From Promethearchaeota archaeon (lineage in GTDB: Archaea; Asgardarchaeota; Lokiarchaeia; Sigyniarchaeales; SOKP01): a stretch of DNA of 64,000 nt. Position numbers and translations under genes: made by a program. Below the pieces are notes generated by a model that was given only the letters and a program-made list of their open reading frames with translations, ran no database searches and had not been told where the DNA came from. The stretch is taken from positions 64,001 through 128,000 of the forward strand of contig JAEOSU010000070.1 in assembly GCA_016840165.1 (NCBI GenBank), read 5' to 3'. Below are positions 50,664 to 53,008 of this stretch, in pieces. The stretch's first letter is position 1, and the number at the start of each line of letters is the position of its first letter.

Positions 50664-50860
50664 TACGCAATGAAATGGTATAAAGCAATTTTTAATTAAT
50701 TTCTCTCTATAATCAATCTAACTTAGAATATTTATTTATTAAAAATAAAGTAAATTTAACAAAAGTTTCAATAGAGTATACCCTAAGCTATATTTTTTTA
50801 TACTCCATAAATGTTAAGTTCTAATTGAAATATATACATTCATTACATAGGTGAGAAATT

Positions 50861-53008
50861 ATAGTTAAAGTAGCATGTTCATCCTCTCTTTGCGAACTAG
50901 AGGAGGAGGAAGAGGAAGAATCTTTTTTTGAAAAAAAATTCTGGTATTTTATTATTCCTTCAGCTATCTTACTTGGAATCTCAATTTTTTTAGAGTTTGC
51001 ATTTAAAATTGTATTAAGCGCTCAAATTCTTGCTATTGCTTCAGCAATTCTTTCAAGTTCTGGTATTGTTAAGGAAACATTCGAAGATGTTAAAAAGAAA
51101 AAAATTACTGCTAATCTATTAATGTTAATAGCTGGCGTTGCTTCATTTTTTATACTACATGGTCAAGAAGGTGCTACTGCATTACTATTATATGCAATAG
51201 CAGAAAGATTGGAAGAAATAACTACTGAAAAATCAAGAAATGCTATTAAAAAATTACTTGAACTTGCTCCTGATGAAGCATTACTGAAATCTGACAAAGG
51301 ATATGTGAATGTTCCTTCAAAAGAAGTGAAATTAGGGAATATAGTTGGGATAAAACCTGGAATGAAAGTACCCTTGGATGGTACTATTGTAAAAGGAAGT
51401 TCCTTTTTTGATGAAAGTGCAATCACTGGTGAATCTATCCCAGTCTTTAAACAAGAGGGTGATAAAATATTTGCGGCTAGTTTGAATTCTGATAGTTTTG
51501 TAGATGTCGAGGTTACAAGAGAAAGTTCAAATACAATTGTAGCTCAAATTGCGGAAAGCGTAAAAATTGCTCAGCAAAATAAAAGTAATCACGAAAAATT
51601 TATTGAAAAATTTGCTAAATATTATACTCCTATTATTCTTCTAGCATCCATTTTAGTTATGCTAATTCCCTCTTTATTAGGACTTAACTTTTTTGATTGG
51701 TTTTATCGTGGATTAGTTTTACTTGTAGTTTCATGTCCTTGCGCATTAACACTCTCAAATCCTTTGGCTAATATTAGTGCTTTAACTAAGCTTGCTAGAG
51801 AAGGAATAAGGGTTAAGGGAAATAAATATATAGAGTTAGCTGATAATGTGCAATTAGTAGCATTTGATAAGACTGGAACTTTAACAGAGGGAAAATTAAA
51901 AGTTTTTGATGTAATCAGCCATGGCATTTCAAAAGAGAGATTACTACAAATCGTTGCGAGTTTGGAAGCAATTTCTGAACATCCTATTGGCAATGCTATC
52001 GTTAGTCAATCGAAAGTAATGGATTTACCTTTATTAACTGTAAAAAATTTTAAAGTAATAAAAGGAATGGGGTTAGAAGGTGTAATAGATAAAACTCTAT
52101 ATCATATAGGAAGTCAAAAATATTTGGAGAGCATAGGTTATGAGATACCTAATGAAGACTTAAACTATTTCGGCAGTCAAGGAGTCATACCTGTATTTCT
52201 TGGGAGCAATAATAATCTTTTAGGGTTAATAACCATTAGGGATGTTTTAAGAGTGTCAGCTCCAATATTAATTGATGAATTGAAGAAAATGGGATTGGAA
52301 ACAGTCTTAATTTCTGGAGATCACCAAGCAGTATGCAACACTATAGGTGCTTGTTTAGATATGAATGTTGCTCAAGGTGAACTTTTACCCGACCAAAAAT
52401 TAGAAATAATACGTTCAAACAAAGAAAAGAATAAAAAAGTTGCCATGGTTGGAGACGGGATTAATGATGCTCCATCTTTGGCATTATCTGATCTAGGTAT
52501 TGCCATTGGGGCCTCGGCGACAGATTTAACTCTTGAAACGGCAGACGTCATTATTATGAGCGATGATTTAAAGAAAATTATAACTTTTTTTAATATCGCA
52601 AAAAAGACCAATAAGATTATAAAACAAAATATTTGGGGCTCTATTTTAATTAAAGTGTCATTCGCAATTCTCACTGTAATTGGGTTAATGACTTTATGGT
52701 TGGCAGTTGGAATTGGAGATATGGGAGTCTCATTAGCAGTATTATTCAATGGGATGAGAATTTTCAGATATAAAGTTAAATACAAAGATCTGAGCACTGA
52801 TATGGTTGAGAATGAAGCAAAATCAATTGTATGTAGAACATGCAATACACGGAATATTTTACCTCAGCATCACGGAAGAGATATGGTGAAAACCGAAAAA
52901 AAGTTGGTATGTTGGAGAAAACTATTAAACAGTGATGAGTTAGAACCGTGCGAGGAAGAAATTCCATTGTTATGCCCCCAATGTAATAATGAATTAGAGG
53001 TTATTTAA
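50861..53008 (+). CDS. P1B-type heavy-metal ATPase (Zn/Cd, ZntA/CadA-like); start extended to ATA
   Basis: TGES, SCPCAL, DKTGT, SEHP, GDGINDAP, TM Lys and DMG (P1B-2); 87 extra in-frame codons with two TM helices upstream of ATG 51122; SD AGGTGA 6 nt before ATA. Confidence 0.9.
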   Translation: MVKVACSSSLCELEEEEEEESFFEKKFWYFIIPSAILLGISIFLEFAFKIVLSAQILAIASAILSSSGIVKETFEDVKKKKITANLLMLIAGVASFFILHGQEGATALLLYAIAERLEEITTEKSRNAIKKLLELAPDEALLKSDKGYVNVPSKEVKLGNIVGIKPGMKVPLDGTIVKGSSFFDESAITGESIPVFKQEGDKIFAASLNSDSFVDVEVTRESSNTIVAQIAESVKIAQQNKSNHEKFIEKFAKYYTPIILLASILVMLIPSLLGLNFFDWFYRGLVLLVVSCPCALTLSNPLANISALTKLAREGIRVKGNKYIELADNVQLVAFDKTGTLTEGKLKVFDVISHGISKERLLQIVASLEAISEHPIGNAIVSQSKVMDLPLLTVKNFKVIKGMGLEGVIDKTLYHIGSQKYLESIGYEIPNEDLNYFGSQGVIPVFLGSNNNLLGLITIRDVLRVSAPILIDELKKMGLETVLISGDHQAVCNTIGACLDMNVAQGELLPDQKLEIIRSNKEKNKKVAMVGDGINDAPSLALSDLGIAIGASATDLTLETADVIIMSDDLKKIITFFNIAKKTNKIIKQNIWGSILIKVSFAILTVIGLMTLWLAVGIGDMGVSLAVLFNGMRIFRYKVKYKDLSTDMVENEAKSIVCRTCNTRNILPQHHGRDMVKTEKKLVCWRKLLNSDELEPCEEEIPLLCPQCNNELEVI

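Follow-up and report, generated by a model that had tools for sequence, protein, structure and literature searches.

Probable AUA initiation of a P1B-type ATPase and evidence for frequent AUH start codons in a lokiarchaeial lineage

The ATPase gene and its start site

The window analyzed here is a 64,000-nucleotide (nt) stretch of a Promethearchaeota genome (assembly GCA_016840165.1, class Lokiarchaeia, order Sigyniarchaeales) and represents positions 64001-128000 of its contig, JAEOSU010000070.1. The genome as analyzed comprises 3.6 Mb in 105 contigs with a GC content of 31%. The window contains a gene for a heavy-metal P-type ATPase of the P1B group, and the subject of this study is the codon at which translation of this gene starts (Table 1). 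The reading frame is closed upstream by a TGA that is itself part of a Shine-Dalgarno (SD) sequence, and this stop is followed by GAA, ATT (50858), and then ATA. The first canonical start codon (ATG, GTG, or TTG) in the frame is an ATG at 51122, which lies 87 codons past the ATA and 89 past the TGA. Public protein collections hold a 628-aa form of the protein that begins at this ATG, and no SD was seen in the sequence upstream of it. Open stretches of at least 80 codons without a canonical start were found in 19 of the 2683 open reading frames (ORFs) of at least 150 codons in this genome; a start-less stretch of 89 codons is rare in DNA of 31% GC, beyond what chance would give. The 3' tail of the 16S rRNA (...GGATCACCTCCT, contig C49 of the same genome) is complementary to AGGTGA. 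Taking all of the evidence presented below together, we consider it very probable that translation of the ATPase begins at the ATA behind this SD, and both the position of the N-terminus and the first residue are what we infer from the sequence.

This start had been proposed in a first-pass annotation made from the sequence alone. The elements on which that proposal was built, namely the 87-codon start-less frame, the TGA boundary, the GAA and ATT ahead of the ATA, and the SD 6 nt before it, can all be read in the sequence, and the gene that it used as a comparator for the spacing, GAGGTGA-TTGTTA-ATG, is present on the minus strand at 36149-36164.

Table 1. Positions in the window of the ATPase features and of three further genes discussed in the text
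Feature	Position	Strand	Remarks
Shine-Dalgarno sequence AGGTGA	50849..50854	+	last three bases are the in-frame TGA (50852-54) that closes the frame upstream
ATA, inferred start codon	50861..50863	+	6 nt past the SD AGGTGA
Full coding sequence with stop	50861..53008	+	715-aa P-type ATPase, P1B-2 type (Zn/Cd/Pb)
N-terminal tail	50876..50920	+	CSSSLC (50876-50893) and run of seven Glu (50900-50920)
Helices MA and MB	50936..51094	+	MA, residues 27-48; MB with kinked extension, residues 51-78; hydropathy and predicted model
ATG, start in public annotation	51122..51124	+	here Met88, an internal sense codon in helix M1
C-terminal Cys/His-rich tail	52781..53005	+	residues 641-715 (CRTC ... PQHHGR ... 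CPQC)
RsmB gene	23775..22405	-	
vWA gene	39532..38405	-	
EcfT gene	41379..40495	-	CbiQ family

Coding potential of the upstream stretch

Alignments, structural comparison, and substitution patterns indicate that the 87 codons upstream of the ATG are genuine coding sequence. CadA-like genes from Bacillota align with the ATPase from residue 1, the ZntA profile alignment begins at residue 21 of the stop-to-stop ORF, and the sequence alignment to ZntA 4umv begins at residue 54. An AlphaFold model of the ATPase (mean pLDDT 67) superposes over residues 25-637 on the structures of CadA (7qbz, Z 33.7) and ZntA (4umv, Z 30.7), with MA and MB included in the superposition; confidence is low for residues 1-20 and 630-715, and we make no claim about the folds of these regions. 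P1B structures align with the model from residue 20-25, while P2 ATPases, which do not have MA and MB, align only from residue 63-72. The hydropathy profile has hydrophobic segments at residues 26-49, 50-70, and 81-101, the last of which is M1, and the protein has the two extra N-terminal helices only if it starts at or near 50861. The CSSSLC motif, the poly-Glu run, and the two transmembrane helices that the first-pass annotation had described upstream of the ATG are borne out by motifs, hydropathy, the model, and the P1B structures.

We also compared substitution rates between species that all lack a canonical start and that are separated by a dS of about 1. For the stretch between the first Cys and M1 (76 codons), dN/dS was 0.07-0.33, compared with 0.08-0.14 for the rest of the gene, and the extension is under purifying selection in the same way as the remainder of the protein. 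The residues around the annotated start are themselves conserved: L87-M88 is invariant in 15 orthologues and matches a Leu-Met of ZntA 4umv, and Met88 stands in the middle of the hydrophobic segment of M1. Without the residues ahead of Met88, the product would have neither MA nor MB and only half of M1. Start-less species differ in where their first internal canonical codon falls (codon 37, 46, 52, or 89).

Family and domain organization of the pump

Profile searches place the protein among the heavy-metal ATPases, as it passes the cut-offs of TIGR01525 (531.1 bits, cut-off 346.25) and TIGR01512 (446.5 bits, cut-off 313.5) and fails those of the ZntA equivalogs (439.6 vs 1005 and 389.4 vs 1240 bits; NCBIfam NF008262 / NF033775). 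Pfam matches were found to E1-E2_ATPase and Hydrolase. The catalytic motifs TGES (residues 189-192), DKTGT (336-340), and GDGINDAP (531-538) are present, as are CPC in M4 (292-294), NIWGSILIK in M5 (590-598, N-x7-K), and DMGVSLAVLFN in M6 (620-630, DxG-x7-N), a combination that matches the metal-site signature of P1B-2 in the published P1B classification. Based on these profiles and motifs, the pump is a metal exporter of the P1B-2 type, a relative in that subgroup and no ZntA orthologue. It shares with ZntA of Shigella (4umv/4umw) and with CadA (7qbz) the eight-helix membrane domain that includes MA and MB, the CPC in M4, the Lys in M5, the DxG in M6, and all three catalytic motifs.

The Asgard pump differs from ZntA and CadA at both of its ends. 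An N-terminal HMA domain is common, though not universal, in P1B ATPases, but a Pfam search found no such ferredoxin-like metal-binding domain in this protein, which instead carries the CxxxxC and poly-Glu tail. The first Cys of this tail (C6) is invariant and the second (C11) nearly so among the 15 orthologues, and the tail may be a short metal-binding segment that replaces the HMA domain. The C-terminus is extended by a conserved Cys/His-rich tail of 75 residues without a Pfam match, in which C658, C661, P668-R673, C684, W685, C697, C705, P706, and C708 are invariant among the same orthologues. This tail probably binds zinc and could act as a metal sensor or regulatory domain of the zinc-ribbon type.

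Conservation of the start site among orthologues

The start site was compared across 20 orthologues from the same genus, with this genome (G000) counted among them. An SD is found at the same place in all of them, reading GGTGA or GGTGC in 19 and GATGA in one. At 5-6 nt past this SD, 15 of the 20 have an ATH codon (H being A, T, or C), which is ATA in seven genomes (G000, G007, G010, G009, G021, G017, and G005), ATT in two (G018 and G014), and ATC in six (G019, G013, G002, G008, G004, and G011). Three orthologues have TTG (G016, G023, and G024), and two have ATG (G012 and G003), one at 5-6 nt past the SD and the other at 11 nt. A search for an ATG at this very site had been suggested in the first-pass annotation, and G012 provides one exactly where its close relative G014 has ATT. 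Some orthologues, then, have a canonical start at the homologous site (5-11 nt past the SD), which is the pattern that we looked for in a near-cognate start. Six genomes, including G000, have no alternative start at all.

Several observations weigh against a start at the ATA. A canonical codon overlaps the SD in nine orthologues (TTG-GTG, GTG-GTG, or ATG-GTG/ATG-ATG) and is possibly used there, G010 has a GTG two codons past its ATA, and in this genome the ATT at 50858, 3 nt past the SD, is also in frame. Furthermore, the genomes compared are kin and so are not independent observations, and the predicted model is only of moderate confidence, with its mean pLDDT of 67.

Genome-wide use of ATH start codons

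In 72 ORFs with a length of 100 codons or more, the frame opens directly behind a GGTGA, and at the third codon of these ORFs ATG occurs 15 times, TTG 10 times, GTG twice, ATT and ATA 11 times each, and ATC once. At the other six positions of these ORFs, ATT and ATA each average about 3. The counts of ATT and ATA peak 5-7 nt past GGTGA, the same distance as for ATG, which occurs only 3 times at 3 nt compared with 17-19 times at each of 5-7 nt. We then defined orphan SD sites with four strong SD pentamers: at start spacing behind the pentamer there had to be an ORF of 100 codons or more in which canonical starts are absent between the upstream stop and a point 10 codons downstream. An ATH codon is present at 36 of 74 such sites (24 ATT, 11 ATA, and 1 ATC), compared with 10% of control codons in the same ORFs (Fisher p 6e-14). 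Shifting the test position by 6 nt reduced the ATH count to 6 of 73, and scrambled SD pentamers gave no significant ATH enrichment. Canonical starts found in the same way number 137, including 28 TTG and 9 GTG, so that ATH makes up about 21% of strongly SD-led starts (36 vs 137 canonical) and ranks above either TTG or GTG. There are a few cases of CTG or ACG besides, with CTG at 4 of the orphan sites compared with 36 for ATH. Strong SDs are few genome-wide (approximately 170), in agreement with the rarity of SDs reported for Lokiarchaea (PMC12993045).

Protein families provide further support for these starts. The Pfam profile of a GFO/IDH/MocA dehydrogenase (GFO_IDH_MocA) has its position 1 at residue 2 counted from the ATH, those of three Ras-family GTPases have theirs at residues 8-9, and NAPRTase_N has its position 2 at residue 8. 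The first canonical codons of these Pfam-backed genes are 15-84 codons further in. The genome-wide count that the first-pass annotation had suggested as a check thus came out clearly on the side of non-canonical starts, and these data support the view that ATH starts are routine in this lineage and would be missed by standard gene callers. The earlier proposal of routine AUA initiation stands as to the habit itself and not as to AUA alone, since AUU is used at least as often as AUA and both far more often than AUC.

The habit is not equally strong throughout the order. In two complete sister-family genomes, sampled at 1.2 Mb, ATH accounts for 9% and 7% of strongly SD-led starts, and the pooled comparison with this genome gives p 0.004; within these samples, in which power is low, ATH enrichment has p 0.024 in G032 and p 0.19 in G038.

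Three side observations concern the genes with such starts. Of the 36 candidates, 8 have Pro and 7 have Ser directly behind the ATH start, compared with Pro in 8 and Ser in 16 of 100 SD-led ATG starts. Three of the 36 candidate genes encode Ras-family small GTPases. In a hisB-like ORF (C102:749-138, minus strand), 100 start-less codons are preceded by GAGGTGA with an ACG at SD+6, which is possibly an ACG start.

Companion genes in the window

The first-pass annotation had listed three further genes of the window, encoding RsmB, EcfT, and a vWA protein, as starting at ATA. This holds for EcfT, in which the ATA at 41373-41371 stands codon-for-codon where two sister species (G007 and G020) have a TTG start. 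As the Pfam matches fell short of the N-termini of RsmB and the vWA protein, the starts of these two were judged through their orthologues. For RsmB, five species have no canonical start for 60-100 codons and the others have GTG or ATG, and the likelier start in this genome appears to be not ATA but the ATT at 23769-23767, which follows AAGTGA. The vWA gene is a different case, as all 20 of its orthologues lack a canonical start for 21-121 codons. At window positions 39515-39520, the TAA that ends an upstream 290-codon ORF (40389-39517) runs into a conserved ATA-ATC, which is GTA-ATC in three orthologues, and the overlap reads AUAA / UAAUC. Here a near-cognate codon seems to be used for stop-start coupling without an SD, which would be the near-cognate analogue of the coupling at ATGA and TAATG.

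Alternative explanations

The most conventional alternative is that translation starts at ATG 51122 or at another internal canonical codon and that the 87 codons are an untranslated leader or a decaying remnant. This ATG is the first canonical start in the frame, and it is where the form in public collections begins. However, a leader or remnant would have to be conserved in more than 20 species, to share the purifying selection that acts on the remaining codons, and to encode an MA and MB matched by the P1B structures; the ATG itself lacks an SD and encodes an invariant Met in the middle of helix M1, and the internal canonical codons are at species-specific places, so we regard such a start as very unlikely. 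A start at the neighbouring ATT would involve the same near-cognate mechanism; this codon is in frame, and among the non-canonical starts of the genome ATT is the one used most often. The ATA is nevertheless the best candidate, because even canonical starts are rare at 3 nt past GGTGA, as the counts for ATG make clear, and because G018 has AGT at the position of this ATT and an ATT at SD+6. G019 and G013 likewise have AAA and ATA there and ATC at SD+6, and a start at ATT 50858 strikes us as highly improbable. A start at the ATA could also depend on dedicated decoding, either by a second or modified initiator(-like) tRNA that reads AUA and AUU or by initiation with an Ile-tRNA. The large excess of ATH over CTG at orphan sites would fit with this, as would a set of intron-rich tRNAs that ARAGORN and Rfam recover only in part and among which another tRNA could be hidden. 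Our pattern search, though, returned a single initiator-like tRNA with a CAU anticodon, and the use of three different third bases (A, U, and C) is better explained by lost third-position discrimination, which makes dedicated decoding decidedly improbable. Conversion of AUA to an AUG-like AUI by A-to-I editing before translation, which had been raised as a speculative mechanism in the first-pass annotation, does not account for the ATT and ATC found at the same position in orthologues or for ATT being the commonest of the class genome-wide, as neither U nor C can be edited to an equivalent of I or G. We reject editing on these grounds and see almost no likelihood in it.

There is also next to no chance that the arrangement is an artefact, be it a base at 50863 that was wrongly sequenced or assembled or a TGA 50852 that is read through from the in-frame TTG at 50825, nine codons ahead of it. 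A contig from the probable source run is identical over 50500-51500 at a depth of 29 and without variants, run X5, from an independent study, has a contig with no difference over 50845-51212, and a strain from a third study, which is a few percent divergent, covers the start site with no listed difference there; an assembly error at the ATA is ruled out by the identical contigs, one of them from an independent study. Six other species have the same start-less arrangement, and long conserved genes of this genome translate under table 11 without internal stops. Read-through was rejected because the frame upstream of the TGA is not conserved and in orthologues has other stops and no start. We also considered and rejected an out-of-frame ATG at 50875 followed by a frameshift: this ATG simply arises where a codon ending in A meets the TGT of a Cys, its distance from the SD is 20 nt, and we saw no support for a shift of frame. 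Contigs from an RNA-library run (X19) were from relatives only (85-95% alike, starting at 50871, one covering 50871-51034) and show neither transcription in this strain nor the start nor its translation. Contigs nearly identical to the window are present in marine-sediment metagenomes. The source run has a second contig, of depth 100, that matches only 50792-50862 around the SD with 6 differences, and because this contig is from a related organism, the sample contains several related strains or species.

A possible mechanism of AUH initiation

For initiation at the ATA of the ATPase gene, we propose that the AGGUGA of the mRNA would pair with the 3' tail of the 16S rRNA (UCACCU) and thereby bring the AUA, 6 nt further on, into the P site. 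This AUA could then be accepted through a mismatch at the third position by the ordinary initiator Met-tRNA with its CAU anticodon, which presumably inserts Met, and the resulting protein would bear the CxxxxC/poly-Glu tail together with helices MA and MB. A weak start codon of this kind may keep synthesis of the pump low. The presence of A, U, and C at the third position suggests that the P site no longer discriminates at this position, and it speaks less for editing or a special anticodon; the tolerance of AUH may stem from limited or lenient proofreading by aIF1.

Both of the components that the first-pass annotation had pointed to were examined. The initiator tRNA gene (C49, plus strand, approximately 11031-11167) contains two introns, of which the first follows position 37/38 and the second lies in the T-loop. 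After splicing it is an ordinary initiator tRNA, with a cloverleaf, a CAU anticodon, three G:C pairs in the anticodon stem, and A1:U72. It was found by pattern search alone and was missed by both ARAGORN, which recovered 11-23 tRNAs with no CAU tRNA among them, and Rfam, which recovered 20. No further initiator-like tRNA, with an NAU anticodon, came out of a regex search, which is a weak one for this purpose. Lengths of 100-130 nt are common among the tRNAs of this genome, and one of 100 nt in the window (8670-8769), seen by Rfam and not by ARAGORN, presumably bears an intron.

The only aIF1 (SUI1) gene of the genome (C49:34396-34737, minus strand) itself has no ATG, GTG, or TTG before its zinc knuckle. 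Every one of the 18 same-genus genomes in which the gene was found has an ATT four codons past the upstream stop. Elsewhere in the order, the equivalent codon is TTG, GTG, or ATG in other families and ATA in one other genus, and the two sister-family genomes with the lower ATH share have canonical aIF1 starts. The data fit a model, based on three genomes, in which the dosage or quality of aIF1 may set the stringency of start-codon selection. Relaxed aIF1 fidelity, suggested earlier as a possible cause of AUA initiation, is a hypothesis that the invariant ATT start of aIF1 itself makes more plausible. A suboptimal start on the gene of the proofreading factor itself has parallels in the AUU start of infC, which encodes IF3, and in the poor context of eIF1, for which feedback on stringency has been discussed (PMC6237735); in contrast to those loops, the feedback suggested here for aIF1 is drawn from conservation alone. 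It is possible, though we hold this only tentatively and think it rather doubtful, that low stringency is set on purpose, with aIF1 limiting itself through its AUU, with AUU and AUA serving as selectable weak starts, and with AUH kept over the long term for the tuning of expression.

Comparison with known systems and implications

Starts at AUU and AUA are isolated but well known in bacteria, for example in infC and pcnB of E. coli, and genetic code table 11 lists them. Another case is ebpA of Enterococcus faecalis, which has an ATT start (PMC4447247). The bacterial genes resemble the one studied here in having an SD followed at normal spacing by an isoleucine-type codon, presumably weak initiation, and an annotation that is too short because it begins at a downstream ATG, and in both settings the codon is presumably read by the initiator tRNA. 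While the bacterial cases are isolated genes, AUH accounts for about one-fifth of the strongly SD-led starts in this Asgard genome, which has eukaryote-type factors (aIF1, aIF1A, and aIF2) and no IF3. Near-cognate initiation in eukaryotes also has codons with one mismatch read by Met-tRNAi, at a stringency that is set by eIF1, the homologue of aIF1. However, eukaryotes favour CUG, GUG, and ACG and depend on Kozak context and scanning, whereas the third-position variants AUU and AUA dominate here, with positioning by the SD. A search of a library of open-access full texts gave no paper that describes frequent AUH starts for Asgard or any other archaea.

The gene itself encodes an ordinary Zn/Cd pump, and its interest is in what it reveals about start-codon usage in the lineage. 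The public 628-aa form of the pump is missing two and a half membrane helices and the metal-binding tail, and dozens of other genes in this genome, which include those for aIF1, small GTPases, dehydrogenases, and ABC ATPases, are likewise shortened by gene callers that take nothing but ATG, GTG, and TTG as starts. Asgard protein catalogues and structure predictions are used in reasoning about the origin of eukaryotes, and shortened genes distort them. The difference in ATH share between this genome (21%) and the sister-family genomes (7-9%) implies that the trait is not uniform in the order and that its distribution can be compared with changes in aIF1. Frequent initiation at AUU and AUA with eukaryote-type factors, together with an AUU-started aIF1, provides a testable handle on how stringency is set and on archaeal-eukaryotic evolution. 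If aIF1 does limit itself in this way, the archaea that are the closest known relatives of eukaryotes would have a feedback loop equivalent to those of IF3 and eIF1.

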